From NCBI GenBank assembly GCA_965649055.1, contig CBFGJG010000040.1:1-18729 (forward strand): a DNA stretch of 18,729 nucleotides. Reading direction: 5' to 3'. Positions 1,394-18,729 of the stretch are shown one piece after another. Made by a program: the position numbers and the translations under genes. The stretch is from a candidate division WOR-3 bacterium (GTDB taxonomy: Bacteria > Hydrothermota > UBA3072 > B12-G15). Numbering within the stretch: the first letter of the stretch is position 1; each line of letters begins with the position of its first letter. The notes under the pieces are model-generated. The model worked only from the letters and a program-made list of their open reading frames with translations, did not search any database and was not told the DNA's origin.

Positions 1394-2412
1394 AGAAATT
1401 TTTTGTTATAATTGGGGCTTTTATAATAATTTCGGCGGTTCTTTTTTTTGTCTTTAAATTTAGAAAAGAAAAATTTTTAGAAAAAGAAGAGGAGATACCA
1501 CCTATAGAGGTTTCAGGATGTATTGTATCAAAAGGTGAGATTAAAGTTAGTATTGAAGGAATTGGAATAGTTTCCCCTGAAAGAAATGTTTTGTTCAAAT
1601 CACCTGTTAAAACAAATGTATTGAAGTTTTATATCTTCTCTGGAAAGAGGGTTAGAAAAGATGAGATACTTTTTAAACTTAATAATGAGAAAGAAAAGGC
1701 TGAATACGAGGATGCGAATATTGAACTTCAGAAATGTAAGAAAAAATATGAATTCATAATTGTAAGAGAAGAGATAGATTCAACACTGGCAAAAAAAGTA
1801 TCGGGATACCTTGATGCTGTAGAGAGGTTTGAAAATGCAAGAAGGATTTATGAAGCAACAGAACCAAAGGCACCATTTGATGGTTTTATTGGAGATGTTT
1901 ATGTAAGAGAAGGGGTGATTGTTGATGTAGGGGATAAAATATGCGAAATTTATGATAATAAAAAAATTATAGTTTCTGAAATACCTTTCATTGAGGGTGA
2001 AAATCTGAAAACTGGAAATTTTGTTGAGATAAGGAAATCAGATAGTGATTCAATTTTTAAAGGTGTAATAACTGGTATTGCACCTATACTGAACGAAAAA
2101 AATAGAATAGTAAAATTGTTTATAAAATCAGAATACGATTTTCCTTTAGGTTCTATCCTTAAACTTAAAATTATAAAAGAAATCTATAAAGATAAAATAA
2201 GGATTCCAAATGATGCTATTCTTATGAGAGAAGGAAGATTCCTTGTATTCAAGGTTGAACAGGGTAAGGCAAAATGGGTATGGATTGACATTGGTATAAA
2301 AGGTGATGAATGGACAGAGGTTCTAAGTGGTGTAAATTTAGGTGATACTGTTTTGACAGAGGGACATTTTACAATCGCACATGATGCAAAGGTTCAAGTT
2401 AAGATAGAATGA
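1390..2412 (+). CDS. Efflux RND transporter periplasmic adaptor (membrane fusion protein)
   Basis: N-terminal TM anchor, lipoyl/hairpin halves (SPVKTNV...G.RV.K.E.LF.L; KAPFDGFIG...V.EG..V.VGD) and the typical C-terminus IPNDAI...IGIKGDEWTEVLSGVNLGDTVLTEG. Confidence 0.9.
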   Translation: MKKFFVIIGAFIIISAVLFFVFKFRKEKFLEKEEEIPPIEVSGCIVSKGEIKVSIEGIGIVSPERNVLFKSPVKTNVLKFYIFSGKRVRKDEILFKLNNEKEKAEYEDANIELQKCKKKYEFIIVREEIDSTLAKKVSGYLDAVERFENARRIYEATEPKAPFDGFIGDVYVREGVIVDVGDKICEIYDNKKIIVSEIPFIEGENLKTGNFVEIRKSDSDSIFKGVITGIAPILNEKNRIVKLFIKSEYDFPLGSILKLKIIKEIYKDKIRIPNDAILMREGRFLVFKVEQGKAKWVWIDIGIKGDEWTEVLSGVNLGDTVLTEGHFTIAHDAKVQVKIE

Positions 2413-5207: not shown

Positions 5208-8061
5208 GCCTGTTTCTTTAACCTGTATTTATCTTATTATCCTTTTACTCGGTGCTGTATCAATCACAAGATTACCGGTAGAAAAGATTCCAGAAGTTGA
5301 ATATCCTTCAATAATCGTAAGATATATCTGGAATGGTGCATCTCCTGAAATGATGGAAAGAAGGATAACAAGCAAGGTGGAAGCAGCAGTCTATAAGTTG
5401 AAAGATGTAAGGGATGTTCTATCAAGGTCAAAAAAGGATGAATGTGAGATAGAGGTTACATTTAATAATTCAAAAGATTTAAATTATAAGAGGGTTCTGT
5501 TACTTGAAGAATTGAATAAATTGGAATTTCCTGAAGATATGGAGGGACCATTTGTTGAAGAGAATCTCCCCGAGGAATTCAGAAGAGGCCCAAATTTCAT
5601 TCTTTATATAACAGGTGATATGACATTAGAAAGATTAAGTGAACTTGCGAATGAATTTAAATTTCAGATTATGATGATAAAAGGTGTAGAGGATGTAAAT
5701 GTTTTTGGTGATGTTAAGAAGATTATAAATATAAGGATAAAGAATGAAGACTTAAATATCTATGATGTATTCAATGCACTGGACTTTAAAAAGTATAATG
5801 CGGGAAAGGTTGTAGAAAATAAAAGGGACCTGCCTCTTCAAATTATAATCAATGAAAGATTAAATGACTTATATGTTGGAGGAAAAAGGCTTGAGGATAT
5901 TTCTGAGATATACTATGAGTTAAAAGAACCTGATATTATTTCAAGGATAAATGGTAATCCACAGATAACTATAAATATATCGAGGAAAAAAACAGGTAAT
6001 ACATTTTACATAAGCAGGGTTCTAAAAAAACTAATTTCAAATTTTGAAAGAAAGAAAAATGTCAAATTAATTATTTCAAGTAATGAGGCAAGTGAAATTT
6101 TCAGGACAATAAAAGAGGTCATTTTACTTGGTATTATAAGCATCATCTCCTGTTCATTTATACTTTTTATATTTTATAGAAAGATGTTTGTCGTTTTTGT
6201 ATTCTTTATCTCCATCTTATTTTCAGCAATACTTACATTCTCAATCCTTTATTTCCTTGGGTTTTCTTTAAATTTTCTTACATTGAGCGGAATATGTCTT
6301 GGTTTTGGAATGCTTGTTGATAATTCAATTGTTGTCCTTGAAAATATATTGAGGCTTAAAGAGGAAAAGGTTAAAGATGCGGAAGAAAAAGGTGCAAAAG
6401 ATGTATTTATAGCTGTTTTTGGTGCAACATTAACAACCATAGCTGTCTATTTCCCATTTCTTTACTTCCAGGGTAAAACAAAGGTATTTTACATCCAATT
6501 TGCAGTTGCATCTACTATTTCTTTACTTTCATCAATGTTTGTCTCATTTACACTTATCCCAAGCCTATCGAGAAAGATTAAAGGAGGAAGAGAGATTAAA
6601 CATATTTATTATGAAAAAACACTGAAATTTTTATTAAAATGGAGATGGATTGTTATCACCTTAAGCATTCTTGCTGTTATTGTTTCTTTTTATTTCTTCA
6701 AAAATTATGTATATTTTGGTGAATTTTATGAATTTAGAGAAAGGAACGAATTGTTTATATATATTAGATTGCCAAGAGGCTCTGAAAGAAAAGAGGTAAT
6801 AAAGATTGTTGATAGATTTGAAGAGGAGATAAAGAAACAGGAAGGGGTTCAAGAATTTTTTACAAATATATACTCAAATCAGGGAAACATAAATGTTAAA
6901 TTTAAAAAGGGTTCAGAATGGAAAGGTGTATCTTTAAAAGAGAGGCTCGAGAACCTTTCTGTTAATTATGCAAACTGCAGGATAATAATATATGGCTTAG
7001 GTCCTGTTTTTTTCACTGGTTCATCAGGTATATCGAGTTTCCCTGAACTAACATTAAGAGGATACGATTGGTATGTTCTGAAATCTTTATCAAATATGAT
7101 ATGTGAAAAACTAAGAAAAAATCCAAGGATAGATGAGATAGATCCGAATTTTTCATACTATGGAAAACAGATGGAATACATACTAAATGTGAAGGACGAT
7201 ATATACTTTTATAATCTCAACCCTTATTATGTTTTCACTAAAATCAAGCCTTTTTATCAAAAAGAAATCGAAATAAATAACAGAATAATCCCTGTTAAAA
7301 TATTTAAAGATTCAATCATTTATATTGATAAAATCCTGAATGAAGAAGTAGATAAAGGCGTTTATTTAAGAGAGATAACTAATTTGACAGAATCTCATAC
7401 GCCACCAGAAATAGAGAGGGAAAACAGGATTTATAAGATGGATATTGCATATTTATATAAGGGACCATGGAAGTCAGCATATGAATTTAAAAAAGGATTT
7501 ATTCAGGCTATAAAACTTCCACCCGGTTTCACGCTTTCAGCAGCATCTTTTTATAGAGAGGAAGAAGGTATTAGTAAGAAGACAATAATAGTTTCTATTA
7601 TAATTTCAATATTTCTTTTATTCCTTATTCTTTCAAGCACATTTGAATCTTTAATCAACCCATTTTTGATTATTTTTTTAATCCCGTTTTCATTTATAGG
7701 GATAACAATAGTTTACATTTTTACTGGAAATACATTTGATACATCTTCCTTTGTTGGACTTATATTATTTACAGGTATAGCAGTGAATAGTGGGATAGTC
7801 TTGATAGACCATCTTTCAAAAGGTGATAATAAAGAAGATGAAATCATTAGGAGGTCTTCCCACAGGTTAAGACCTATTATGACCACTTCCTTAACAACAA
7901 TTGCAGGACTTTTTCCATTTCTGTTTCTCAAAACAGAAGGTATTCTTTTCTCAAAACTATCTTTAACAACCATTGGTGGGTTGATACTTTCCACAATCTG
8001 CAGTATTTTCATATTGCCAGTTATTTATTATTCAATAAATAAAAAATATAAAAATATTTGA
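5185..8061 (+). CDS. RND efflux permease subunit 2 (AcrB/MdtC-like paralogue)
   Basis: FLNRPVS...LPVEKIPEVEYP...GASPE; TM4 GMLVDNSIVVLENI; RLRPIMTTSLTT and IGGLILST; 958 aa; overlaps the previous gene by 23 nt. Confidence 0.92.
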   Translation: MIRFFLNRPVSLTCIYLIILLLGAVSITRLPVEKIPEVEYPSIIVRYIWNGASPEMMERRITSKVEAAVYKLKDVRDVLSRSKKDECEIEVTFNNSKDLNYKRVLLLEELNKLEFPEDMEGPFVEENLPEEFRRGPNFILYITGDMTLERLSELANEFKFQIMMIKGVEDVNVFGDVKKIINIRIKNEDLNIYDVFNALDFKKYNAGKVVENKRDLPLQIIINERLNDLYVGGKRLEDISEIYYELKEPDIISRINGNPQITINISRKKTGNTFYISRVLKKLISNFERKKNVKLIISSNEASEIFRTIKEVILLGIISIISCSFILFIFYRKMFVVFVFFISILFSAILTFSILYFLGFSLNFLTLSGICLGFGMLVDNSIVVLENILRLKEEKVKDAEEKGAKDVFIAVFGATLTTIAVYFPFLYFQGKTKVFYIQFAVASTISLLSSMFVSFTLIPSLSRKIKGGREIKHIYYEKTLKFLLKWRWIVITLSILAVIVSFYFFKNYVYFGEFYEFRERNELFIYIRLPRGSERKEVIKIVDRFEEEIKKQEGVQEFFTNIYSNQGNINVKFKKGSEWKGVSLKERLENLSVNYANCRIIIYGLGPVFFTGSSGISSFPELTLRGYDWYVLKSLSNMICEKLRKNPRIDEIDPNFSYYGKQMEYILNVKDDIYFYNLNPYYVFTKIKPFYQKEIEINNRIIPVKIFKDSIIYIDKILNEEVDKGVYLREITNLTESHTPPEIERENRIYKMDIAYLYKGPWKSAYEFKKGFIQAIKLPPGFTLSAASFYREEEGISKKTIIVSIIISIFLLFLILSSTFESLINPFLIIFLIPFSFIGITIVYIFTGNTFDTSSFVGLILFTGIAVNSGIVLIDHLSKGDNKEDEIIRRSSHRLRPIMTTSLTTIAGLFPFLFLKTEGILFSKLSLTTIGGLILSTICSIFILPVIYYSINKKYKNI

Positions 8062-8101
8062 CATTTTAAAAAAAAATGTTATCTTGATTATAAAAAAGGA
8101 G
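8058..8101 (+). promoter_or_regulatory. Putative sigma70 promoter and Shine-Dalgarno of the rpmH operon
   Basis: TTGACA (8058-8063), 16-nt spacer, TG-T-TATCTT (8077-8085); AAGGAG (8096-8101) 5 nt before ATG 8107. Confidence 0.65.
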
Positions 8102-8106
8102 TATCT

Positions 8107-8241
8107 ATGAAAAGAACATACCAACCACATAATTTAAGACGAAAGAGAACGCATGGTTTTCTTGCGAGGATGTCAAGCAAAGGTGGGAGAAAGGTTTTAA
8201 AAAGAAGAAGAGCTAAAGGAAGATGGAAGATAGCAATTTAA
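8107..8241 (+). CDS. rpmH: 50S ribosomal protein L34
   Basis: Manual translation [44 protein letters not shown] (44 aa) is a clear bL34. Too short for the ORF track; canonical position before rnpA. Confidence 0.98.
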
Positions 8242-8572
8242 AAAAAGAAGGACTTCCAAAAATTTTTAAACTTAGAACAAAAAAGGAATATAAAGAAGTC
8301 CTTGAAAATGGAAAGGTTATAAAAGGTTTTTTTTTGATTGCATCTTTCTTGAAGCGAATGAAAGAAAGTTTGGAATCCTTGTTGACAGGAATATTAAAGG
8401 TGGAGTTAAAAGGAATAAGATGAGAAGAAGGATAAGGGAGATTTATAGAAAAGAAAAATACAATTTGAAGAATGGGAAGATTGTCATAAGACTCCATAAA
8501 GAGGCACTTGATGCAAGGTTTAAAGAAATTCTTAATGAGTTTAACAGGATAAAAGGGATTATAAATGAATAA
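8223..8572 (+). CDS. rnpA: Ribonuclease P protein component, reading frame broken (most likely at T9, 8327-8335)
   Basis: The frame from 8223 gives the RnpA-like N-terminus ([21 protein letters not shown]). The -1 frame after the T run gives [41 protein letters not shown]...IINE* (stop 8570-8572), containing the RNR-type motif. One extra T would yield a 116-aa protein. Sits between rpmH and yidD. Confidence 0.9.
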
Positions 8573-8774
8573 ATTAGCCGTTTTTATAGTAGAAACATAT
8601 CAGAAGTTCGTATCCCCTTTCCTTCCACATTCCTGTAGATTTTACCCGAGTTGTTCAGAATACACAAAAGAGGCAATAATAAAAAAGGGTTTATTGAAAG
8701 GGATTGTCCTTGGTATTTACAGGATTTTAAGGTGTAATCCATTAAATAAAGGTGGTTATGACCCTGTTAAATAA
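8565..8774 (+). CDS. yidD: Membrane protein insertion efficiency factor YidD
   Basis: YQKFVSP...CRFYPSCSEY...RILRCNP...GGYDPV signature; synteny. Confidence 0.97.
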   Translation: MNKLAVFIVETYQKFVSPFLPHSCRFYPSCSEYTKEAIIKKGLLKGIVLGIYRILRCNPLNKGGYDPVK

Positions 8775-8788
8775 AAATGTGAGGTTAT

Positions 8789-10261
8789 ATGAAAAATAGA
8801 ATGTTGAATTTTATCATTGCATATATTCTGATATTTGTCCTACTTCTTCTTTATCAAAACTATGTCGTGAAGAAAAGACAACCAGTTCAGAAAACCGAAG
8901 AAGTAAAAGAAGAACAGGTAGAGCAAAAGAATATAGAGATAGTTCAGAAGACAGAAGAGGTAGGCAAAAACATAGAAGAAGTTGTTTTTGAGAATAAAAA
9001 ATTAAAGGTTGTTTTTCAAAATATAAATGGTGCTATCAAAAACATATATATTAAAGATTATAATGTTAATTTAATTGGAAAAGATTTAATTTTTATCACA
9101 TCCTATATAAAAGGTTCCCAGAGGATTTTAACTGATATACCGTATAATTATGAGATAAAAGGCGATTCTATCAGATTCTTTTATGAAGATTCACTTCTCT
9201 ATGAAAAAATATATATTTTTAATAACGATAATTATTCTATTAAATTAATTCAGAAACCTGAAACTGATTATTATTACACTGTTTTTAAGTTTGAAACAGA
9301 TGAGAAACATTCAGATAAGGATAGATTTAATGGTGCTGTGTATTCACTTGCTAAAAAGATATTCACAATTCAGGATAGAAGTTTTATAAAGACAGACAAG
9401 AAATCAATTCCAGGTATTGTTGACTGGTCTGGATATAAGACAAAGTATTTCTTCTTTGGAGTTGTTCCTGAAGATAATGGCGAAGAGGTTATTTTCGAAC
9501 GGATATCTGAGAATTCTGGAATTACAATGAAATACAGGAAAGATATAACTTTATTTGCAGGACCGCTTGAATATTACTCTTTAAAAAAGGTTAAGATTGG
9601 TCTTGAGGATGCAATCTATTTTGGTGCAAGCTGGATTAGGCCTGTTGCTAAATTGATTTTTTTCTTTATAACATTTTTGCATAAATATATAACCAATTAC
9701 GGTCTTGTTATAATAGTGCTTACAATTGTTATAACAATAATACTTTCACCAATAAATTTTCTTTCTTTCAGATCAATGAAGGCAATGAAAGATATTCAAC
9801 CGAAGATTCAGGAGCTTCAAAAGAAATACAAAGATGACCCGAAGACACTTAATACAGAAATAATGAATGTTTACAGGGAAGCAGGTGTTAATCCGTTTTC
9901 AGGTTGTCTGCCTTTATTCTTACAACTTCCTATTTTCTTTGCACTTTATGCTGTATTAAGCAGCACAATAGAACTTAAAGGTGCCCATTTTATCCTCTGG
10001 ATAAAGGACCTTTCAGCAAAAGACCCGTTCTATGTTCTACCGATACTTATGGGTATTACGATGTTCCTTCAGCAGAAATTTTTTACACCACAGACAGGCA
10101 CAGGTTCACAGGAACAGCAGAAAATGATGACATATATGATGCCAGTATTGTTCACATTCATATTCTTCAATTTCCCTTCTGGCCTTGTGCTATACTGGCT
10201 TTTATATAATATACTTTCTATGCTTTTGCAGTACTTTATGAAAAAACAAGTAGGAGGATAA
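8789..10261 (+). CDS. yidC: Membrane protein insertase YidC
   Basis: N-terminal TM, periplasmic domain, NYGLVII, QPKIQELQKKY, GVNPFSGCLP, WIKDLSAKDPFYVLP, PSGLVLYW. Confidence 0.97.
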   Translation: MKNRMLNFIIAYILIFVLLLLYQNYVVKKRQPVQKTEEVKEEQVEQKNIEIVQKTEEVGKNIEEVVFENKKLKVVFQNINGAIKNIYIKDYNVNLIGKDLIFITSYIKGSQRILTDIPYNYEIKGDSIRFFYEDSLLYEKIYIFNNDNYSIKLIQKPETDYYYTVFKFETDEKHSDKDRFNGAVYSLAKKIFTIQDRSFIKTDKKSIPGIVDWSGYKTKYFFFGVVPEDNGEEVIFERISENSGITMKYRKDITLFAGPLEYYSLKKVKIGLEDAIYFGASWIRPVAKLIFFFITFLHKYITNYGLVIIVLTIVITIILSPINFLSFRSMKAMKDIQPKIQELQKKYKDDPKTLNTEIMNVYREAGVNPFSGCLPLFLQLPIFFALYAVLSSTIELKGAHFILWIKDLSAKDPFYVLPILMGITMFLQQKFFTPQTGTGSQEQQKMMTYMMPVLFTFIFFNFPSGLVLYWLLYNILSMLLQYFMKKQVGG

Positions 10262-10858
10262 ATGGAAACATTAATTGTGGAAGGGAAAAATTTAGATGAG
10301 GCACTAAGCATCGGACTTGAAAAATTAAGCCTCACAAAGGATGATGTTGATTACAGGGTGATTCTGAATAATGATATTGTAAAAATAAAGATCTACAGAA
10401 GAAACGAGATTGAAAGGATAATTAAGGACATAGTAAAGAATTTTGTTGAGAGGTTAACTGATAAGACAGATGTTGAAATTATAAGCAAAGGAAATGCAGT
10501 CTACATTGCTAATATCTTAACAAACGAAGATGCGATTCTTATTGGTAAAAAAGGAAAGACACTTGAAGCACTGCAACATCTTATATCAAGAATGATTCAT
10601 AAATACGATAAGGATATTGAAGTGAATGTTGATGTTTCAGGATACAGAGAAAAGAGAGAGCATCTTCTAAGACAGAAGGCAATAGCATTTGCAGAAGAGG
10701 TTAAAAGAACAGGTAAACCAATTATATTCGAGGAAATGCCTGCTTATTTAAGAAGGATTATTCACATCACTTTACAAAAAGACAATTCAGTTAGAACCTA
10801 TACTATAGGTGATGGTGAATTAAAGAAAGTTGTTATTGCACCTGCTTCTAAGAAGTGA
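10262..10858 (+). CDS. jag: Jag/EloR (KhpB) RNA-binding protein
   Basis: Jag-N (EGKNLDEAL), KH domain (LIGKKGKTLEALQHL), R3H domain (RRIIH); synteny after yidC. Confidence 0.93.
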   Translation: METLIVEGKNLDEALSIGLEKLSLTKDDVDYRVILNNDIVKIKIYRRNEIERIIKDIVKNFVERLTDKTDVEIISKGNAVYIANILTNEDAILIGKKGKTLEALQHLISRMIHKYDKDIEVNVDVSGYREKREHLLRQKAIAFAEEVKRTGKPIIFEEMPAYLRRIIHITLQKDNSVRTYTIGDGELKKVVIAPASKK

Positions 10859-12208
10859 ATGGAAGATACCATTGCAGCAATCAGCACAAGTCCTGGTGTT
10901 GGTGCTATATCAATCGTAAGAGTAAGTGGTAAAGATTCTTTTAAGATAGTATCAAGAATTTTCAAAGGAAAGAAAAATCTACTTAATGTAAAAAAAAGAG
11001 ATATCATTTATGGCTGGATTATTGATAAAGAAAAAAATATTGTTGACGAAGTTCTTCTTTTTGTTATGCGAGGTCCTAATACATACACTGGTGAAGATAC
11101 AATTGAAATATCTACACATGGTGGATATTTGCCTGCAAAGAAAGTCCTTGAAGTTGTCCTTGATGCAGGTGCAAGGCTTGCAGAAAGAGGGGAATTTACA
11201 AAAAGGGCATTCTTTAATGGGAGAATAGACTTAATAAAAGCAGAGAGTATAAATGATATTGTCAGGGCAAAGACTGAAAAATCTTTGATGATAGCTGAAA
11301 GGAATCTTAAAGGTGGACTTTCAAAAAAGATAAACAGGATAAAAGAGAAACTTATTGAAACAATTTCAGACATTGAGTTATCTCTCGATTTCCCGGAAGA
11401 AGATGTTCCAAACATTGATTTTGAAAAAATAATTTCTGATTTAAACTCATTGAAAAAAGAACTTGAATCGTTGAAAGAAAGTTATAAAATTTCAAGCGCT
11501 TTAATGGAGGGTATCGATGTTGTAATTATTGGAAGACCAAATGTTGGGAAATCAAGTATTTTTAATGCAATGTTGAATGAAGAAAAGGCAATAGTAACAC
11601 CAATACCTGGAACAACAAGGGATATAATTGAAGGATGGATAGACCTTGATGGTTTTCCAGTAAGACTCCTTGATACTGCCGGATTAAGAAAAACTAAAGA
11701 TGAAGTAGAAATTATTGGAGTTGAAAGGACCTACAAGAAAATTAAAGAATCTGATTTTTTGATAGTAGTGATAGATGGTTCATCAAAATTGACAGATTAT
11801 GATAAAGAAATTATTAATAAATATAAAGATGCATTATTAGTTGTAAATAAGATTGACCTTGGAATAAATAAAGAAATTGAAGATACATTTAAAGATGTTA
11901 TTTTTACTTCTGCATTAAGTTTTCAAGGGATTGAAGAAATTTTAGAAAGGCTAAAAATAAAAATAGAAGAAAGATTCCCTGTAAATTACGGTGAAGATTT
12001 TATAACAAAGGAAAGGGAAATCTATTCTGTAAAAAAAGCAATAAATTCAATAAATAATGCATTAAAGAATATTAAGGAGAAAAGGAATCTTGAACTTATT
12101 GCATTTGAACTGAATGAATCTGTAATTGCATTGAAAGAATTGATTGGTGAAATAACATCAGAAGATATTTTAAACAGAATATTCTCTGAATTTTGCATAG
12201 GTAAATGA
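10859..12208 (+). CDS. mnmE: tRNA modification GTPase MnmE (TrmE)
   Basis: DTIAAIST, YTGED, GEFTKRAF.NG, G1 GRPNVGKSS, GTTRD, DTAG, NKID and C-terminal FCIGK. Confidence 0.98.
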   Translation: MEDTIAAISTSPGVGAISIVRVSGKDSFKIVSRIFKGKKNLLNVKKRDIIYGWIIDKEKNIVDEVLLFVMRGPNTYTGEDTIEISTHGGYLPAKKVLEVVLDAGARLAERGEFTKRAFFNGRIDLIKAESINDIVRAKTEKSLMIAERNLKGGLSKKINRIKEKLIETISDIELSLDFPEEDVPNIDFEKIISDLNSLKKELESLKESYKISSALMEGIDVVIIGRPNVGKSSIFNAMLNEEKAIVTPIPGTTRDIIEGWIDLDGFPVRLLDTAGLRKTKDEVEIIGVERTYKKIKESDFLIVVIDGSSKLTDYDKEIINKYKDALLVVNKIDLGINKEIEDTFKDVIFTSALSFQGIEEILERLKIKIEERFPVNYGEDFITKEREIYSVKKAINSINNALKNIKEKRNLELIAFELNESVIALKELIGEITSEDILNRIFSEFCIGK

Positions 12209-13227
12209 AATTAGAAGAATTTGATTATTATCTGCCAGAAGAATTGATTGCTCAGTATCCTGTTGAAAGAGGATGTTCAAGATTGCTTGTTTTAAACAGA
12301 AATACAGGTGATATTAAACACAGGAATTTTAAAGATGTAATTGAATATATTGAACCGGAAGATGTTCTGGTTCTTAATAATACAAAGGTTATTCCAGCAA
12401 GACTTTATGGTAAGAAGGAAACTGGCGGGAAGGTTGAAATTTTTATTCTTAAGAAATTGGAAGATAAAATTTATGAAGTTCTTGCTGGTCCTGGTAGGAA
12501 GGCAAAGATAGGAGATAAAATAATATTCTCGGAAAATTTTTATTGTATTATAAAAGATATAAATAAAGATTTCGGAACAAGAATAGCAGAATTTTTCGGA
12601 GAAGATATAGATGGAATGATAGAAAGATATGGGGAAATTCCATTACCACCATATATAAATAGAAAACCTGAAGATATTGATAGGATAAGGTATCAGACAG
12701 TATACGCAGAAATAAAAGGAGCGGTTGCAGCACCTACAGCAGGATTGCATTTTACTGAAGAATTGTTAGAAAAAATAAGAGAAAAAGGTGTAAAGACTGT
12801 CTTTATTACCTTACATTCAGGTCTTGGGACTTTTAGACCTGTTAAGGTTAGTGAGATTGAAAAGCATAGAATGGAACCTGAATATTTTAATGTGAGCAGG
12901 GAAACAACAGAGATAATAAATGATGCAAAATCAAGAGGGAAAAATATAATATGTGTTGGAACAACAACGATAAGGGCACTTGAATCAATTGCGGATGAAA
13001 AAGGTTTTGTGAAAGAATATGAAGGCAAGACAAATCTCTATATATATCCGCCATATAAATTTAAAGTATGTGATAAAATCATCACGAATTTTCATCTTCC
13101 TAAATCAACTTTGCTTTTACTTGTATCAGCATTTGCAGGGAAAGAGAAAATATTAAATGCATATAAAGAGGCAATAAATCTTAAATACAGATTCTTTTCC
13201 TATGGCGATGCCATGATGATAATCTAA
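12205..13227 (+). CDS. queA: S-adenosylmethionine:tRNA ribosyltransferase-isomerase QueA
   Basis: FDYYLPEELIAQYP, PLPPYI.R, RYQTVYA, VAAPTAGLHF, TNFHLPKSTL, RFFSYGDAM. Confidence 0.98.
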   Translation: MKLEEFDYYLPEELIAQYPVERGCSRLLVLNRNTGDIKHRNFKDVIEYIEPEDVLVLNNTKVIPARLYGKKETGGKVEIFILKKLEDKIYEVLAGPGRKAKIGDKIIFSENFYCIIKDINKDFGTRIAEFFGEDIDGMIERYGEIPLPPYINRKPEDIDRIRYQTVYAEIKGAVAAPTAGLHFTEELLEKIREKGVKTVFITLHSGLGTFRPVKVSEIEKHRMEPEYFNVSRETTEIINDAKSRGKNIICVGTTTIRALESIADEKGFVKEYEGKTNLYIYPPYKFKVCDKIITNFHLPKSTLLLLVSAFAGKEKILNAYKEAINLKYRFFSYGDAMMII

Positions 13228-13236
13228 ATTTTCTTA

Positions 13237-13265
13237 TTGACTATAAAAAGAATTATTATTAAACT
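13237..13265 (+). promoter_or_regulatory. Putative sigma70 promoter of cas6, likely leaderless transcript
   Basis: TTGACT (13237-13242), 17-nt spacer, TAAACT (13260-13265). ATG 13272 lies 6 nt after the -10 box; no Shine-Dalgarno. Confidence 0.55.
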
Positions 13266-13271
13266 AAAATA

Positions 13272-14030
13272 ATGAAGATAAAAATTACATTTGAACCAGT
13301 AAATAGTAAAGGAATAATACTCCCATTTGATTACAATTACTTAATTCAAGGTTTTATTTACAATAATTTAAAAAAAACGATTTCTTCAAAAATACATAAC
13401 AAAGGTTTTAATTATCAAAAAAGATCTTTTCGCCTATTTGTATTTTCACGTCTATATGGAAATTATGAAAGGATTGAAAACAGAATGAAGTTTAAGAGCA
13501 CCTGTTATTTATACATTGCATCTCCAATTATAGAAATACTTGAGTCATTTGCAACTTCAATTGTAAAAAAAAATAAAGTTAAAATAGGTGAAAATTGTGT
13601 ATATGTAAATGGAATAGAGGTTTCATTTATAAAAGACTTTTCTCAACCTGTATACATAAAAACATTATCTCCAATTACTGTATATTCAACACTTTTGACA
13701 AAAGATGGAAAAAGAAAAACCTATTATTATTCTCCTTTTGAAAATGAATTTTCAAAGCAGATTAGGGAGAATTTAATAAAAAAATATACTATCTTAAATT
13801 ATGAGAGAAATTTTGACAAAATGGATTTCAATATAAATCCTTATAAAGTTTCAAAAAATAATGAACACATAGTTCTTTATAAAAACACAGTTATAAAGGC
13901 TTGGTCAGGAATATATAGAATAGAAGGTTCAAAGGAACTCTTAGAAATTGCTTTTGATTGTGGTATAGGTTCAAAGAATAGTCAGGGTTTTGGTATGATT
14001 GAATTGTTTAAATTAAAGGAGGATAGATGA
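13272..14030 (+). CDS. cas6: CRISPR-associated endoribonuclease Cas6
   Basis: LPFDYNYLIQGFIY, H..G....RSFRLFVFSRL, TLSPITV and the C-terminal glycine-rich loop GIGSKNSQGFGMI; 252 aa. Confidence 0.95.
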   Translation: MKIKITFEPVNSKGIILPFDYNYLIQGFIYNNLKKTISSKIHNKGFNYQKRSFRLFVFSRLYGNYERIENRMKFKSTCYLYIASPIIEILESFATSIVKKNKVKIGENCVYVNGIEVSFIKDFSQPVYIKTLSPITVYSTLLTKDGKRKTYYYSPFENEFSKQIRENLIKKYTILNYERNFDKMDFNINPYKVSKNNEHIVLYKNTVIKAWSGIYRIEGSKELLEIAFDCGIGSKNSQGFGMIELFKLKEDR

Positions 14031-14485
14031 GAATATATCTTGTTCAACATGGAGAAGCGAAGAGTGAGGATGTAGACCCTGAAAGATCATTGACAGAAAA
14101 AGGTATAGAAGAGACTGAAAGGATTGCAGAAATTTTAAATAGGAAAGGGATAAAAATTTTTAAAATTTATCATAGTGGTAAAAAGAGGGCTTATCAGACT
14201 GCAAATATTTTTTCAGAAATTCTCGATGTTCCGTCTGAAAAAAGTGAAGGCTTAAATCCACTTGATGATATAAATTTATGGTTTGAGAAGATAAAAAATG
14301 AAGATAATGATATAATGATAGTAGGACATCTTCCTTTTCTTGAAAGACTTAGTTCAAAAATTCTTTGTGGGAATGAGGATTTAAAGATAGTTAAATTTAG
14401 ATACTCTTGCGTTGTATGTCTTGAAAAGACAGAACTGAATGTATTTTTTATTAAATGGTTTTTAGTCCCTGAAATAATTATTTGA
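14027..14485 (+). CDS. sixA: SixA-like histidine phosphatase
   Basis: IYLVQHGEA (RHG variant), R.LTEKG, HSGKKRAYQTA, MIVGHLPFL; 152 aa. Strong SD AAGGAGGA (14016-14023) and ATGA overlap with cas6. Confidence 0.85.
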   Translation: MRIYLVQHGEAKSEDVDPERSLTEKGIEETERIAEILNRKGIKIFKIYHSGKKRAYQTANIFSEILDVPSEKSEGLNPLDDINLWFEKIKNEDNDIMIVGHLPFLERLSSKILCGNEDLKIVKFRYSCVVCLEKTELNVFFIKWFLVPEIII

Positions 14486-14509
14486 CAAAATAAATATTTT
14501 AATTATAAT
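14482..14509 (+). promoter_or_regulatory. Consensus sigma70 promoter upstream of the small ORF/nucleotidyltransferase/cas3 genes
   Basis: Perfect TTGACA (14482-14487), 16-nt spacer, perfect TATAAT (14504-14509). Confidence 0.7.
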
Positions 14510-14525
14510 AAAAAAAGGGTAAAAA

Positions 14526-14735
14526 ATGATAATGAATAGAAAATTTCTTGAAAAATTTGAAAATGAACAAGTCAAGACAATTAAAAATAATTATTTCCAA
14601 AACTTAACAATTTTTGAGATGCTTTTAAAATATGCAAAAGAAATTAGTGGATTTAAATCCCATAATATATTATTTGAGATTAAAAATGATATTAAATATG
14701 CGAGGGCGATAAATGGAATTAAAAGAACTGATTAA
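14526..14735 (+). CDS. Small helical hypothetical protein, putative partner (antitoxin-like) of the downstream nucleotidyltransferase
   Basis: 69 aa, fills the gap after a consensus promoter and overlaps the next gene by 23 nt. The start could be 14526 or 14532. Function inferred only from the two-gene layout. Confidence 0.6.
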   Translation: MIMNRKFLEKFENEQVKTIKNNYFQNLTIFEMLLKYAKEISGFKSHNILFEIKNDIKYARAINGIKRTD

Positions 14736-15270
14736 AAACATTGTCTTGCATCTTAAAAAGGAGAAGATTGATTATATGATTATAGGTGGACAGGCAGTTT
14801 TATTGTATGGTGAACCAAGGCTCACAAAAGATATTGATATTACACTAAATATTGGGATTGAAGAATTAAATAAGATTTTAGGAATCTCAAAAATCTTAAA
14901 ATTTAAAATATTAACGAAGAATCCTATTGATTTTGTAAAAAAGACATTGGTGCTCCCAGCCTTTGATAGTAAAACTGGAATGAGAGTAGACTTTATATTT
15001 TCGTATTCTGAATATGAAAAACAAGCCATAAAAAGAGCAAAAAAAATAAAGATAAAAGGAACATTTGTGAAATTTTGTGCAATTGAAGATTTGGTGATAC
15101 ATAAGATAATTTCTGGTCGCCCAAGAGATTTAGAAGATGTGAAAATTATTTTGATGAAAAACAAATTTTTAGATGAAAAATACCTGACTAAATGGCTCAA
15201 AAGTTTTGAAGAAGTTCTTGGAGAAGATTTAATAAATAAATATAAACAAGTAAAAAAGAGTATTAAATGA
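14713..15270 (+). CDS. Pol-beta superfamily nucleotidyltransferase (DUF6036/AbiEii-like)
   Basis: YMIIGGQAVLLYGEPRLTKDIDI (GG...R.T.D.D), RVDFIF (third Asp), EDLVIHKIISGRPRDLEDV; 185 aa. Confidence 0.8.
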   Translation: MELKELIKNIVLHLKKEKIDYMIIGGQAVLLYGEPRLTKDIDITLNIGIEELNKILGISKILKFKILTKNPIDFVKKTLVLPAFDSKTGMRVDFIFSYSEYEKQAIKRAKKIKIKGTFVKFCAIEDLVIHKIISGRPRDLEDVKIILMKNKFLDEKYLTKWLKSFEEVLGEDLINKYKQVKKSIK

Positions 15271-16895
15271 TGAATAGTTGTAAAAATTTCTACATGAATT
15301 TTGGCTTTAAACCTTTTATTTATCAAGAAAGTGTATGGGATTATTTTAAAAATCTGAATTTTCCCTTTTTAATTAAGGCACCAACGGGTTCAGGTAAGAC
15401 AGAAGCAGTTATTTTCCCATTTTTGAATCAATTTTTGGAAAATAATTTTTATCTTGCTCCAAGGATGATTTATGTATTGCCAATGAGGGTTCTCGTGAAT
15501 AACATTGCTCAGAGAATAGAAAATTATGCAAAGAAAATTTCTTCAAATCTTTCAGTTGAGATCCAGCATGGTGACATTCCCAATACTCCTTTTTTTATTT
15601 CAGATATAGTTGTTACAACTCTTGACCAATTTCTTTATGGTTTTGCAAGAGCAAGTCATCAGGTTGGACATCACATTGATATGCCTGCCGGTTCTATTGC
15701 TTCTTCACTGGTAGTATTTGATGAAGCCCATATGTATAGAGATGAGTTCACATTTGCCATTATGCGTGCCTTGATGGAGATATTACATAAGAGTAATATT
15801 CCCTTTGTAGTTATGACCGCTACCATGCCTAAAAGTCTTGAAAGAAGCCTTTTTGAAAATATTGACATAGATGAAGGTAAGAAGATTGTTGGGGAGATAG
15901 ATTTAAGCTCAAGCTTAAATATAACCTTATTTGAAGAACCACTTTTTAAAGGCAATGAAGTAAATATCTCAAATGAACTTTTAGAAAAAATAAAAAACAA
16001 GAAGACGCTTATAGTCTTAAATCAAGTGAGTAGAGCTCAAATGGTTTATAAAGAAATTAAAAATATGCTTGATTTAAATGATGATGAGATTGTCTTACTT
16101 CATTCACAATTTACAAGGAAAGATAGAGAAGAACATGAAACAAGGGCACTTTCCATTATTCCTCATAAGAAGGAGAAAGAAATTATAAAACCGGAAGGAA
16201 CGGGCATAGTGGTCTCAACTCAGGTTCTTGAAGCAGGTATTGATTTTTCAGCTGAACTTTTGTTGACAGAACTTGCGCCAGCAGATTGCCTTGTTCAGAG
16301 GGCTGGAAGATGTGCGAGATATGAAGGGGAAAAGGGAGAAATGATTGTTTTCCCTGTTGAAGATGATAAAGGACATCTGCCTTACAAAAAAGAGTATTTA
16401 CCAAAAACCCTGGAGTGGTTACAAAACAATAATAATTTCAATATTAAAAACTTTAACGAGGTTTGCTCCTTTATTGATAATACCCTTGATTATCAAGCAA
16501 ATGATTATGAGGCAGCGGATACCTTAATTGATTTGTATGAGTGCGTTTTATATGCTGATATTAAACCTTTCAATATACAAGTTAGAGAGGGGAAACCCAT
16601 AACATTGGTAGTTGTTGATCTTTCAATAGGTGAAGGCAGTAAGAAAGAAGAAAGGATTAGTGATGCGATTAAGAAAACGAATATTAGGAATAATTCTATA
16701 AATCTTGACTTTAGAGTTGGATGGCAATTATTAAAAAAGGGGATTTTAAGATATAAGTTGAATTTTGACTCAGACCAAGGTTTATGGAATTTTACAGAGG
16801 CAAAAGATATATTACCTTTCAGTTATTATCTCCTTGAAAAAAGTTATTATGATGAACTTAAAGGGGTGATGCAAGATGTCGGGTATTTTATATAG
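15267..16895 (+). CDS. cas3: CRISPR-associated helicase Cas3' (no HD domain)
   Basis: Q motif (FIYQE), Walker A APTGSGKT, YVLPMRVL, TTLDQ, DEAH, MTAT, LLHSQF...DR, STQVLEAGIDF, TELAP.D.LVQRAGRCAR. No N-terminal HD domain; cas context. Confidence 0.93.
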   Translation: MMNSCKNFYMNFGFKPFIYQESVWDYFKNLNFPFLIKAPTGSGKTEAVIFPFLNQFLENNFYLAPRMIYVLPMRVLVNNIAQRIENYAKKISSNLSVEIQHGDIPNTPFFISDIVVTTLDQFLYGFARASHQVGHHIDMPAGSIASSLVVFDEAHMYRDEFTFAIMRALMEILHKSNIPFVVMTATMPKSLERSLFENIDIDEGKKIVGEIDLSSSLNITLFEEPLFKGNEVNISNELLEKIKNKKTLIVLNQVSRAQMVYKEIKNMLDLNDDEIVLLHSQFTRKDREEHETRALSIIPHKKEKEIIKPEGTGIVVSTQVLEAGIDFSAELLLTELAPADCLVQRAGRCARYEGEKGEMIVFPVEDDKGHLPYKKEYLPKTLEWLQNNNNFNIKNFNEVCSFIDNTLDYQANDYEAADTLIDLYECVLYADIKPFNIQVREGKPITLVVVDLSIGEGSKKEERISDAIKKTNIRNNSINLDFRVGWQLLKKGILRYKLNFDSDQGLWNFTEAKDILPFSYYLLEKSYYDELKGVMQDVGYFI

Positions 16896-17589
16896 TGCTC
16901 CGGAAGAAAAATATATAGAACATATTCAAAGGTGTGAAGAAAAATTTCAGATTATTTTTCCATTGTTTAAATCTACAATCTCAAGAATTATCCCAGATGG
17001 CGATTTGGAAAAAGCCTTTATTAAGATGCTTCTCTTCCATGACCTCGGAAAACTCACAAAAAAATGGCAGGATAACTTAGGAAATAGTAGAAAATTGCCT
17101 TCACATGCTCCGATTGGTGCAGCTATTCTTTATAAAATTCTTTCTGAAGATATAAGAGAGCCTTTTAGCTTTGCAGTAGCCATCCATCATACAGATAGTG
17201 GACTTCTTGGAGATAATATTGAAAGACCAGATGTTCAGGCAGTATTAGATGGTATAGTTAATTACAATGGGGAAATAATCTGGCATGAAGAGGTAAATAA
17301 ATTAGAAAATTATTTCTTCCCTGAAGAATGCAAAAATTTAACAGTAAACGATTTAAAAGAGATGGCAAGGGGGTTTAGGGTATGGGCTAAAGGAGGTGGG
17401 CTATTAGAACAGCATCAAAGAAGGCTTCAAGTATCATTGACACATCATATATTGAAATTATGTGATATTTCAGCAGCTGCTGAAAGAAAAGAATATCAAA
17501 GGAAAGACGACATAGATTATTATGGTGGCTGGTTGATGGTAGAAGAGATACACAAATATATTGAAAACATTAAACAGAGGAGTAGTTAA
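16876..17589 (+). CDS. cas3'': CRISPR-associated HD nuclease Cas3''
   Basis: YIEHI, FHDLGKL...WQ, HAPIGA, AVAIHH, LKLCD..AA..R give the Cas3-type HD motif order. Own SD-like GGGGTG (16863-16868) 7 nt before the ATG. Confidence 0.88.
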   Translation: MSGILYSAPEEKYIEHIQRCEEKFQIIFPLFKSTISRIIPDGDLEKAFIKMLLFHDLGKLTKKWQDNLGNSRKLPSHAPIGAAILYKILSEDIREPFSFAVAIHHTDSGLLGDNIERPDVQAVLDGIVNYNGEIIWHEEVNKLENYFFPEECKNLTVNDLKEMARGFRVWAKGGGLLEQHQRRLQVSLTHHILKLCDISAAAERKEYQRKDDIDYYGGWLMVEEIHKYIENIKQRSS

Positions 17590-18729
17590 ATGTCAAATGA
17601 GTTTATAGCAGAATTGCACGACATTGGAAAGCTTGCAGATAGGAATAAATTAAATCAATATCAATTAAGCGGACATACCTTTGAGAATTTTAATTTTAAT
17701 TCTCATAATATAACAACACCTGCTTCTCCTTCATGGTGGGGACAGTTCCATCATACAATAGGTTATGATGTAGATATAAATAATTGGTCTGATATCCCAG
17801 TAGAATATAGACGAGATTTATTTTTACTTATTCTTGCAGACCATTTTGCATCTTCTATTTCAAGGGTGCTGCCACAGTTAGGAAGAGGTGATCAATCGGA
17901 AGTGATTTTGAAGTTATGGAATCGTAAATTTTATGAAAATGAAAGAAAAAATGGAAAATATTGGGCTGCTTTTACAACACAAGATGAATTTAGAAGAATG
18001 TTTGAATTATTTGATCAAATAAAGTCACCTGGTGAGTTTTTAACTCAATATAAAGAGAATTTATTACTTACTCCAGAAGATAAATCTATTCCGAGAAATA
18101 TCACATCTCTTTATACTCATGTTGAATTGGTAGGGAAAATATACAGGGTTTTGAAACGGTCCGTTAAATTACAAACTGAGAATGATAAAATATCCTTAGA
18201 GTTAAACGGAAATCAGGTAAGGACTATTAATGAAGCCGAAGGTGGAAGTCGAACAACGGGAAATCTGAATATAGATAAAGGCAATTGGCAGGCAAAATTT
18301 GTAAAATGCTGGATAAAATTTCCACACTCCTTTGTAAGATTACAAGATTTAAATCTTTTATTAAGAAGGCAGCGCCTGCTTGAAACCTTTATAGAAAACT
18401 ACAAAGATTATGTAATGATTTATACCCAAGATTTTCTTTCTTTGTTCTTACCAATAGAAATTGACTTAAAAAAAATGTTTTCAGAATTTTTAGAAAACGG
18501 ATTCTTTATCGAGACTATAGAGACGATCGCTGATTTAGGTATCTTAAGCTCTAATCTTGATAAGAAATTATTAAAAGCAAGAAAAGAAAACGAAACTTCA
18601 AGATTAAGGATTTTAGAAAGAAGAGAAACGAAAGTTTATAGAAATGTTTTAATTTCTAATGGCAATGTTGAACAAATAAAACCACCAATTTGTGATATCT
18701 GTCAGGTGCAACCTGCTAAAGAAAGAATA
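17590..18729 (+). CDS. cas10: Divergent Cas10-like large subunit with N-terminal HD domain (3' truncated by window edge)
   Basis: Manual translation is open for 380 codons: MSNEFIAELHDIGKLAD...GH...FHH...LILADHFASSISR...TPEDKSIPRNITSLYTHVELVGKIYR...SFVRLQDL...YTQDFLSLFLP...PICDICQVQPA. HD at residues 10-11, later His177 and CxxC at 368-371 match type III Cas10/Csx11 architecture. ATG directly follows the cas3'' stop. Confidence 0.75.
   Translation, partial: MSNEFIAELHDIGKLADRNKLNQYQLSGHTFENFNFNSHNITTPASPSWWGQFHHTIGYDVDINNWSDIPVEYRRDLFLLILADHFASSISRVLPQLGRGDQSEVILKLWNRKFYENERKNGKYWAAFTTQDEFRRMFELFDQIKSPGEFLTQYKENLLLTPEDKSIPRNITSLYTHVELVGKIYRVLKRSVKLQTENDKISLELNGNQVRTINEAEGGSRTTGNLNIDKGNWQAKFVKCWIKFPHSFVRLQDLNLLLRRQRLLETFIENYKDYVMIYTQDFLSLFLPIEIDLKKMFSEFLENGFFIETIETIADLGILSSNLDKKLLKARKENETSRLRILERRETKVYRNVLISNGNVEQIKPPICDICQVQPAKERI

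Follow-up and report, generated by a model that had tools for sequence, protein, structure and literature searches.

Subtype III-F of the CRISPR-Cas systems carries a name, and the literature that we searched holds no bench study of it; both the source of its crRNAs and its cleavage target are at issue. In the available text of PMC7694759, its members are said to "remain to be experimentally investigated", and the available text of PMC11229360 describes the subtype as bearing an HD domain, without cyclase motifs and effectors. The cassette analysed here, taken together with its contiguous relatives, resembles the type locus of Thermotoga lettingae (Tlet_0097-Tlet_0100) in its four-gene set, recognised by profile (Cas10f, Cas5_IIIf, Cas11f and Cas7_IIIf), in the presence of the HD domain, in having neither a CARF effector nor its own Cas6, array and adaptation genes, and probably in the absence of a cyclase motif. 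However, it is not free-standing, but lies inside a type I-A operon, where its start abuts the stop of cas3''.

The surrounding operon is similar to those of type I-A, where Cas3 belongs to the surveillance complex according to the available text of PMC11127173, in its split cas3'/cas3'' genes, a large subunit matching the Cas8a profile, a Csa5-like small subunit, a Csa2-like Cas7 and a Cas5. Unlike in I-A, Cas8a and Cas11 are fused, a type III cassette separates cas3'' from cas8a, and Cas6, Cas1, Cas2 and Cas4 score best on profiles labelled I-B. In type I-D systems, Cas10d takes the place of Cas8 in a Cascade of Csc1 and Csc2, and no separate cas3'' is expected. Type I-D also has an HD-bearing large subunit of the Cas10 family encoded beside a Cas3' helicase, whereas Cas10f has Csm-like partners of its own, and a separate Cas8a Cascade and a cas3'' exist.

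Loci combining type I (mostly I-B, less often I-A) with type III are common, and share one cas1-cas2 pair and type I-like repeats, which Bernheim et al. read as a common adaptation serving diverse interference (available text of bioRxiv 10.1101/592600). In contrast to those complex loci, the type III cassette here sits within the type I interference operon, with the genes coupled; III-F goes unmentioned in the available part of that preprint. Within the literature covered by our search, we found no paper stating that III-F nests in I-A. We propose, with a probability of about 0.8, that the DNA under study is the 5' part of a composite operon, in which the cas3'/cas3'' and the cas8a (a cas11 fusion)-cas7-cas5 genes of type I-A flank a nested III-F cassette (cas10f-cas5f-cas11f-cas7f). 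Such a nested arrangement adds a further variant to the composite type I/III loci already known.

Gene content and junctions of the window

The window, that is, the whole stretch of 18,729 nucleotides analysed, is an entire contig (C40) from a candidate division WOR-3 bacterium, and holds only the first 380 residues of Cas10f. Its relevant features are collected in Table 1.

Table 1. Features at the 3' side of the window, with the evidence for each
Feature	Position	Strand	Evidence
cas6, encoding a Cas6b-type endoribonuclease and opening the cas operon	13272..14030	+	TIGR01877 1.2e-43; PF01881, PF21350; PADLOC Cas6b 1.9e-74
SixA-like phosphohistidine phosphatase gene	14027..14485	+	TIGR00249 9.2e-34, 116.5 bits (cut-off 74.5); 4-nt overlap with cas6
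Sigma-70-like consensus TTGACA-16-TATAAT, perfect	14482..14509	+	12/12 consensus positions, in the 40-nt gap before orf69
orf69, 69-aa ORF, family unassigned	14526..14735	+	23-nt overlap with the next gene
DUF6036 nucleotidyltransferase (weak AbiEii-like)	14713..15270	+	PF19502 5.7e-11; PADLOC AbiEii 6.5e-05; 4-nt overlap with cas3'
cas3' (helicase half of split Cas3)	15267..16895	+	TIGR01587 6.3e-66, 222.9 bits (cut-off 102.45); PADLOC Cas3a1 3.4e-75
cas3'' (HD nuclease half of split Cas3)	16876..17589	+	TIGR01596 2.7e-13, 50.3 bits (cut-off 43.45)
cas10f, 5' 1140 nt (type III-F large subunit), ended by the contig edge	17590..18729	+	PADLOC PDLC01558

Between cas6 and cas3', the SixA-like gene is a lineage-specific insert, absent at that position in relatives, where cas3' directly follows cas6. 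The short orf69, with zero matches in Pfam, NCBIfam and PADLOC, and the DUF6036 gene possibly form a toxin-antitoxin-type insert. The sigma-70-like element, a consensus match only, is the sole such match within 12900-18729, and this candidate promoter could drive the genes from orf69 through cas10f; no terminator-like site was found in the same interval. The motifs of Cas3' are intact in the translation (APTGSGKT, VFDEAH and QRAGRCAR), and a profile search found it to be the only Cas3' above the cut-off in the assembly.

The tight gene geometry given in the preliminary description is confirmed by the ORFs and by reading the sequence. Both halves of cas3 are on the same strand and overlap by 20 nt, the ATG of cas3'' preceding the cas3' stop (TAG, 16893-16895), with AAAGGGGTGA upstream of the overlap. 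The TAA of cas3'' (17587-17589) is followed without any gap by the ATG of cas10f, which has an AGAGGAG 8 nt upstream. Two HD nucleases are encoded back to back, as had been noticed. This abutment occurs in all eight genome loci with the order cas3'-cas3''-cas10f, and in three metagenome contigs the two genes are either directly adjacent or share 4-8 nt. The close coupling is no peculiarity of this assembly.

A chimera, with a type I locus falsely joined to a type III locus, could be suspected from the fragmentation of this metagenome bin (85 contigs) and from the break of the locus inside the III-F cassette, as also happens in genome G115. However, the junction recurs in 10 other independent assemblies, and four loci (G195, L028, L041 and L103) are contiguous through cas8a, three of them onward to cas5 (G195, L028 and L041) and L103 as far as cas6. 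We regard an assembly artefact as practically out of the question, refuted by the recurrence of the junction.

Cas10f and the probable continuation of the locus

The preliminary description took the ORF at 17590 for a Cas10 with an N-terminal HD domain, which is borne out. Although neither Pfam nor NCBIfam gave a match, PADLOC profile PDLC01558 (labelled Cas10a|Cas10f) matches with an E value of 2.5e-98, the alignment covering model positions 2-337 of 585, and otherwise PADLOC returns only a weak generic Cas10 match. The fragment is 61% identical to full-length orthologues, groups with full-length Cas10f in one clade of the tree, and is the only Cas10f match in a profile search of the assembly. 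Its HD motif is ELHDIGK (residues 8-14), where H10 and D11 do not vary among 8/8 sequences and reach 90% conservation or more in a set of 32; of 44 full-length Cas10f, 41 have an HD dipeptide around residue 10. A string search (not a structural alignment) for [GSA]G[DE][DE] found none in the six full-length clade members and scattered, unaligned occurrences in 12 of the 44, the fragment in the window being without the C-terminal half. The full-length clade relative L028 is predicted to fold as Csm1/Cas10 (Foldseek E 7e-11, prob 1.00).

Given the likeness to type I-D already mentioned, the ORF might instead be a Cas10d, in a I-D variant that keeps a separate cas3'', and the Cas3' of the window does weakly match the I-D model TIGR03158 (1.7e-09). 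Yet PADLOC gave no Cas10d match for the ORF at E values up to 0.1; its partners are Cas5_IIIf, Cas11f and Cas7_IIIf rather than Csc1/Csc2, followed by the Cas8a/Cas11-Cas7-Cas5 genes of I-A; and true I-D-like loci with Csc2 (L050 and L057) bear a III-F cassette in addition. This highly improbable identity is refuted by the PADLOC scores together with the III-F and I-A partner genes.

Beyond C40, the nested III-F/I-A locus most likely crosses some 1.9 kb that the assembly lacks and resumes at the end of another contig, C23. No overlap was found between the two contig ends. Read inward, this end of C23 encodes the C-terminal 33 residues of Cas11f, with cas7f (PDLC02150, Cas7_IIIf, 4.9e-95) next and then Cas8a+Cas11 (1.7e-96, 7.3e-63), Cas7, Cas5, Cas4, Cas1, Cas2 and a small array beside cas2 with 4-5 repeats, some of them degenerate, the repeat on the cas-gene strand ending in ATTGAAAC. 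The 469-aa large subunit joins Cas8a (PDLC01216 1.7e-96, residues 1-334) to Csa5 (PDLC00992 2.2e-31, residues 339-454); Cas7 is a Csa2-like Cas7a (PDLC00957 1.3e-39), and Cas5 scores 2.5e-11 (Cas5a 7.1e-07). The gene for Cas5_IIIf is absent from the assembly of this genome (G000), presumably because it lies in the gap. In G195, L028, L041 and L103, Cas5_IIIf, Cas11f and a single Cas7_IIIf all follow cas10f, in the same gene order and contiguously. The cassette has four genes in every contiguous clade member, with no cas6, adaptation genes or CARF effector of its own inside it.

These observations favour the second alternative of the preliminary description, a type III module interleaved in a I-A/I-B locus with one common Cas6: Cas8a/Cas11-Cas7-Cas5, cas4, cas1, cas2 and the array follow the III-F genes, contiguously in G195, L041 and L103. 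That the gene order departs from plain I-A, I-D or plain type III also holds, while the idea of an "undescribed" hybrid was overstated, the module being an already named subtype.

Recurrence of the layout and the place of Cas3

In 11 of 63 Cas10f loci (8/60 from genomes and 3/3 from metagenomes), cas10f comes immediately after a split cas3'-cas3'', and all seven rows of this order in the Cas10f tree fall into a single clade (SH-aLRT 96). The same position between cas3'' and cas8a is not specific to III-F. It is empty in three genomes with plain I-A loci (G163, G111 and G046), where cas3'' overlaps cas8a/11 by 4 nt; in G085, a III-C cassette (cmr1-cmr6-cas10c-cmr4-cmr5-cmr3) fills it; and in G050, a III-B cassette (cmr4-cmr5-cmr6-CARF) stands directly upstream of cas8a/11, on a contig that is cut. 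Elsewhere, III-F cassettes are found inside I-B and I-D-like loci, and the best-scoring relative in the phylum, G129, has a free-standing III-F.

The presence of a complete type I-A Cascade accounts for Cas3, which belongs to the I-A part, and the layout is a recurring composite, not a new kind of Cas3-using hybrid. The hybrid reading proposes that a signalling-dead type III system (III-F here, III-C in G085) nests beside cas3 to use it: after crRNA-guided binding and a nick by the HD domain of Cas10, Cas3'/Cas3'' would be loaded to shred the DNA. The III-F complex would either recruit Cas3 or hand over to it, one Cas3 would serve two surveillance complexes, or mainly the type III one, and the space between cas3'' and cas8a in this I-A family would be reserved for type III cassettes that can be plugged in and exchanged.

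The zero-nucleotide junction kept in the eight genome loci would also fit such a functional tie. Moreover, in 16 of 60 loci the cassette adjoins cas3 or is separated from it by a single gene, on either side and in I-A, I-B and I-D-like contexts; L038 and L040, with sister Cas10f proteins, keep the adjacency in different type I backbones; III-C, the other cassette seen fully inside the slot, is also a subtype without cyclase sites (available text of PMC11229360); and a 2026 paper proposes an origin from III-F for type IV, whose IV-C form acts on double-stranded DNA (available text of PMC13676074). Against it, a full Cascade follows in each contiguous example, and plain loci join cas3'' directly to cas8a. 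No insert-specific change is seen in Cas3'': its HD-domain His/Asp columns are invariant in 11 orthologues, including loci without a type III insert, and the proteins of loci with the insert share 53-74% identity with those of plain loci. For many III-F loci, cas3 is out of reach (12 loci with three genes visible on each side), and in I-B-type loci the cassette also occupies other slots, either between cas7 and cas5 or following cas6 or the adaptation genes. A Cas3-recruiting hybrid would be expected where no type I Cascade explains Cas3, and here Cas8a/11-Cas7-Cas5 lies downstream. The preliminary description had set a complete Cascade without conserved cas3-cas10 linkage, or a Cas10d or Cas8 identity of the ORF, against its hybrid: the Cascade is there, but the linkage is conserved in the 11 loci counted above, and the ORF scores as neither protein. 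We judge the hybrid reading unlikely, and the putative recruitment of Cas3 by III-F is unsupported.

The cassette could also be without activity, the type I operon simply carrying along a decaying or selfish insertion as a passenger. The function of the subtype has never been shown, as the statement quoted at the outset reflects, and some loci are damaged: cas3'' and cas10f are frameshifted in L044, and cas10f, cas7f and cas3' are split in L057. Nevertheless, the ORFs are intact in 10 of the 11 loci with the order cas3'-cas3''-cas10f, the HD residues are invariant, the tight gene coupling is conserved, and the clade, with identities of 55-80%, persists in records whose labels name different phyla, which together make a mere passenger quite unlikely.

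A possible working of the composite locus

The best reading of the nested arrangement is that of two effectors with one common Cas6, adaptation module and array. Since the genes overlap or abut, one transcript or a few would carry them all. Cas6 would cut the transcripts of the common array into crRNAs whose 5' handle, 8 nt long, derives from the repeat. The crRNAs would be loaded into two separate complexes, a I-A Cascade and a Csm-like III-F complex; we infer both this sharing of crRNAs and the independence of the two effectors. The Cascade, with the Cas3' helicase and the Cas3'' nuclease, would attack PAM-flanked double-stranded DNA. The III-F complex would pair with transcripts and switch on the HD nuclease of Cas10f, and no cyclic-oligoadenylate signal would be made, because Cas10f is probably without a cyclase motif. 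The usual RNA-cleaving step of type III may also be missing from III-F, because in a profile alignment with the III-D Cas7 8bmw_H, the loop Asp of the latter corresponds to Ser in most Cas7f. The complex may find its target through RNA or recognise DNA directly.

With no Cas6, array or adaptation genes of its own, the III-F cassette would be hosted by the type I locus, where the same spacers would serve a second defence that does not depend on a PAM. As judged from sequence, III-F most likely borrows the Cas6, spacers and adaptation genes of its type I host, and it rides inside type I operons, of I-A here and of I-B and I-D-like systems elsewhere. If the two systems do not cooperate, the locus would be one more case of the already well-known layered type I and type III defence. 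The empty and filled slots offer natural matched controls for any cooperation between Cas3 and the type III cassettes, and one I-A backbone carrying nothing, III-F or III-C between cas3'' and cas8a represents the swapping of whole effector cassettes at the level of the operon.

The contig end and its probable continuation

The window is one entire contig (C40, 18729 b) of the bin G000, which comprises 85 contigs and 2.08 Mb and is 93.8% complete. A densely packed row of plus-strand genes starts at position 13272 and runs to the contig end. Reading of the sequence bore out the two junctions of the preliminary description: cas3′ overlaps cas3″ by 20 nt, and the cas3″ stop codon abuts the next ATG (TAA-ATG at 17587-17592), with a purine-rich stretch upstream of both the cas3″ and the cas10f start. 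Walker A, DEAH and motif VI are all intact in Cas3′. The last ORF, taken there for a Cas10-like protein with an HD domain, is indeed matched by the PADLOC model 'Cas10a|Cas10f' (2.5e-98, model positions 2-337 of 585) and has an HD motif at its start; Pfam and NCBIfam scans of this ORF gave no match, and its reading as Cas10d or Cas8 is ruled out, since PADLOC gives a match to neither.

Coordinates of the features in the window and in related loci (L011 is the fetched locus on contig C23 of G000; G and L numbers denote genomes of the phylum set and fetched loci)
Feature	Location	Coordinates	Strand	Remarks
Housekeeping genes	window	62-13227	+	outer-membrane factor, RND adaptor, two AcrB-like permeases, yidD, yidC, jag, mnmE, queA
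Tandem AcrB-family RND permease genes	window	2409-8061		932 and 958 aa; overlap 23 nt
cas6	window	13272-14030	+
SixA-like phosphohistidine phosphatase	window	14027-14485	+	TIGR00249, 116.5 bits; overlaps cas6 stop by 4 nt
Sigma-70 consensus	window	14482-14509		TTGACA-16-TATAAT, 12/12
69-aa ORF (orf69)	window	14526-14735	+	overlaps DUF6036 gene by 23 nt
DUF6036 nucleotidyltransferase	window	14713-15270	+	weak AbiEii-like; overlaps cas3′ by 4 nt
cas3′	window	15267-16895	+	TIGR01587, 222.9 bits (cut-off 102.45)
cas3″	window	16876-17589	+	TIGR01596, 50.3 bits (cut-off 43.45)
cas10f	window	17590-18729	+	open-ended at contig end
429-aa PDC-S01 protein	L011 (G000:C23)	8862-10151		PADLOC, 4.1e-89; between cas4 and cas1
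Small ORF	L011 (G000:C23)	12496-12780		between cas8a/11 and cas7
YhcG/DUF1016 PD-(D/E)xK nuclease gene	L040 (G242)	8880-9941		between cas5b and cas10f of an I-B/III-F composite
Reverse-transcriptase gene	L055	4335-5246		PF00078, 4.3e-31; then cas1, after III-F cassette
Complete III-C cassette	L095 (G085:C1)	2302-9730		same I-A backbone, at the cas3″-cas8a/cas11 junction
cmr4-cmr5-cmr6 and CARF protein	L097 (G050:C40)	6480-8991		directly upstream of cas8a/11; contig cut farther upstream

The sigma-70 consensus, in the 40-nt gap that separates the SixA-like gene from orf69, is the sole perfect match within 12900-18729, a stretch in which no terminator-like site was found, and could be a candidate promoter for orf69 through cas10f. 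The SixA-like gene is not at that position in relatives, where cas3′ comes after cas6. The pair of orf69 and the DUF6036 gene may represent an insertion of toxin-antitoxin type within the cas operon; an AbiEi/AbiEii pair lies between cas4 and cas1 in G023, and two small ORFs lie between cas6 and cas3′ in L041. Among the housekeeping genes, the tandem permeases are preceded by a single gene each for an adaptor and an outer-membrane factor, which suggests a heteromeric MdtBC-like pump.

The preliminary description left it to be seen whether the genome encodes a type I Cascade, and a Cas8a/Cas11-Cas7-Cas5 set is present on contig C23. Read inward, the end of C23 encodes the last 33 residues of Cas11f, and the C-terminal ends of Cas11f from five relatives align to this tail. 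Next come Cas7_IIIf (4.9e-95), a 469-aa Cas8a+Cas11 fusion (Cas8a 1.7e-96, Cas11 7.3e-63, Csa5 2.2e-31), a 94-aa ORF, a Csa2-like Cas7, Cas5, Cas4, the PDC-S01 protein, Cas1, Cas2 and 4-5 repeats. Small ORFs occupy the cas8a/11-cas7 position in L028, L095 and L097 as well. The assembly holds one Cas10f match and one Cas3′ above cut-off, Cas5_IIIf is absent from it (shortest contig 5035 b), and the 3′ end of C40 was found to overlap no contig end. The simplest reading for G000 is that C40 joins C23 across a gap of ~1.9 kb, which would hold the remainder of cas10f, cas5f and the larger part of cas11f. The genome G115 is also broken inside its III-F cassette (cas10f-cas5f-cas11f-cas7f), C1 ending within cas5f and C49 beginning within cas7f. 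A metagenome search for an intact locus of the same organism gave relatives at 59-65% identity only and did not close the gap. In G195, a single contig carries cas3′-cas3″-cas10f-cas5_IIIf-cas11f-cas7_IIIf-cas8a/cas11-cas7-cas5-cas6-cas1-cas2-cas4. That the order in the window could be an assembly chimera was rejected, as the cas3′-cas3″-cas10f junction recurs in other loci.

Recurrence of the cas3-cas10f order and the Cas10f tree

As a lone query of genome contigs, the 380-aa Cas10f fragment found no relatives. An alignment of eight Cas10f sequences retrieved 55 loci from the species-representative genome collection, and the phylum search found Cas10f in 8 of 272 genomes, G000 among them; with three loci common to both searches, 60 are distinct. 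Genes were labelled by phmmer against proteins earlier typed by PADLOC, and refined with a Pfam scan of 96 of the 146 unlabelled neighbour ORFs (the others lay farthest from the cassettes or had already been scanned).

Split cas3′-cas3″ genes lie directly upstream of cas10f in 8 of the 60 loci (L027=G115, L028, L029, L041, the frameshifted L044, G195, G201 and G000), and a fused cas3 does so in one (L038). Four loci have cas3 directly downstream of cas7f (L032=G023, L040=G242, L050, L057), three have it one gene from the cassette (L035, L046, L063) and nine elsewhere in the fetched stretch, while in three nothing of type I but Cascade genes is visible before the contig ends. No type I gene was seen in the remaining 32, of which 12 have three genes visible on each side and the others are cut. 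A metagenome search added three loci, all with cas3′-cas3″-cas10f, one of which (L103) continues through cas8a/11-cas7-cas5-cas4-cas6. The adjacency noticed in the window thus proved recurrent, with the same order in 11 of 63 loci (60 genome and 3 metagenome). The coupling is conserved: in all eight genome loci no nucleotide separates the cas3″ stop from the cas10f ATG, and in the three metagenome contigs the two genes either abut or share 4-8 nt. In G164, the 736-aa product of a gene upstream of cas10f looked at first like a Cas3 candidate but is an MMPL transporter.

A 45-row Cas10f tree, made from the 44 proteins that reach 560 aa and the window fragment and leaving out 15 shorter or split proteins, was computed by an IQ-TREE quick search under LG+G4 with SH-aLRT as the sole support. 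All seven rows with split cas3 upstream form one clade (SH-aLRT 96), the sole monophyletic label on a tree over which the remaining contexts with type I genes are dispersed. The tree points to one origin of the I-A/III-F composite, and to several for the nesting of III-F in type I loci generally. These other contexts include I-B loci with a TM1802-type or another Cas8b (L032, L040, L038, L046, L063, L080, L073) and I-D-like loci with Csc2 (L050, L057), and the slots used are cas5-cas3, cas7-cas5, cas3-cas6 or a position after the adaptation genes. In both I-D-like loci the cassette sits between Csc2-type genes and a Cas3′ helicase gene; L057 looks decayed, since its cas10f, cas7f and cas3′ are split. 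III-F cassettes are also found free-standing (G129, L039, L045) or with cas6 alone, with or without cas1/cas2 (G164, L051, L056, L060, L061, L077). In L055, the reverse-transcriptase gene and cas1 that come after the cassette indicate an RT-linked adaptation module.

Type III cassettes in a type I-A backbone

The Cas8a profile matched 12 of the 272 phylum genomes, of which we examined eight (G000, G195 and six fetched; G052, G054, G122 and G123 were left out). In G163, G111 and G046, cas3″ overlaps the fused cas8a/11 by 4 nt, without any insert. In G085, a six-gene III-C cassette, cmr1-cmr6-cas10c-cmr4-cmr5-cmr3 (Cas10c 1.7e-215), occupies this junction, and in G050, whose contig is cut on the upstream side, the cmr genes and the CARF gene would form, in the same position, a III-B cassette able to signal. 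The same backbone with an empty, a III-C or a III-F slot indicates that whole type III cassettes are exchanged at one operon position.

Across plain, III-C-bearing and III-F-bearing loci, Cas3″ proteins share 53-74% identity (71% between the III-C-bearing one and a III-F-bearing one), with the HD-domain residues conserved throughout. This conservation, together with the cas3″/cas8a overlap in plain loci, argues that Cas3 belongs with Cas8a. The bolder idea of the preliminary description, a type III effector that recruits Cas3, is a remote possibility; co-folding of Cas10f (32-row alignment) and Cas3″ (11-row), both from L028, scored 0.00 in a run without controls, which bears neither way on binding.

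The predicted fold of the full-length L028 Cas10f, a member of the clade (32-row alignment; mean pLDDT 88.8, pTM 0.90), agrees along its whole length with Csm1/Cas10 of type III-A complexes (6ifn_A, E 7.4e-11, probability 1.00, TM ~0.5). Against PDB sequences, the Cas10f profile gave a marginal match to III-D Cas10 (1.6e-05), confined to the zinc-finger region, so that the fold search was needed to reveal the Csm1 fold. An HD dipeptide occurs near residue 10 in 41 of the 44 full-length Cas10f proteins. GGDD-like strings are found in 12 of the 44, at unaligned places, and in none of six clade members. The loop Asp of III-D Cas7 (8bmw_H) aligns to Ser in most Cas7f proteins, in a profile alignment that is uncertain in this loop; Cas7f may therefore lack the catalytic Asp and with it the cleavage of RNA.

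Both III-F and I-A are known subtypes, and composite loci in which type I and type III genes go with a single adaptation module are known as well. The III-F type locus is Tlet_0097-0100 of T. lettingae, for which DNA is the predicted target (PMC8036902, table), most III-F loci are without arrays according to a figure legend (PMC12669027, Extended Data Fig. 2), and a passage of PMC7694759 states that III-E and III-F 'remain to be experimentally investigated'. In the portions of the literature searched, which did not extend to the paper defining III-F, we found neither III-F nested inside type I interference operons nor a published account of a conserved I-A/III-F composite clade or of III-F and III-C cassettes using the same cas3″-cas8a slot, with a III-B cassette immediately upstream of cas8a on one cut contig. 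The G000 genome encodes two more type III loci, a Cmr locus of III-B on C68 (L009; cmr1-cas10b-cmr3-cmr4-cmr5-cmr6) and a Csm locus of III-A on C63 (L010) with its own cas6, a Csx1-type CARF-HEPN gene, cas1, cas2 and an array of 37-nt repeats, which brings the class 1 effector sets to four in 2.1 Mb.

Proposed working of the composite operon

From the gene content, order, coupling, recurrence and modular slot described here, we propose that the whole composite operon would be co-expressed and that Cas6 would process the array transcripts. Read on the cas strand, the array repeat ends in ATTGAAAC. A repeat-derived 5′ tag of 8 nt is present on the crRNAs of types I-A and I-B. For type III crRNAs, a tag of this length is described in PMC7192623. 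The crRNAs would load an I-A Cascade carrying Cas3′/Cas3″, in keeping with a passage that counts I-A Cas3 among the components of the surveillance complex (PMC11127173), and the same crRNAs would load a Csm-like III-F complex, with the Cas10f HD nuclease as its presumed sole output. A second effector acting on the same spacers has been proposed for pairs that combine a type I with a type III system generally (Bernheim et al., bioRxiv 10.1101/592600). For the organisms that carry the composite, the benefit would be a second effector that follows different target rules with the same spacers.
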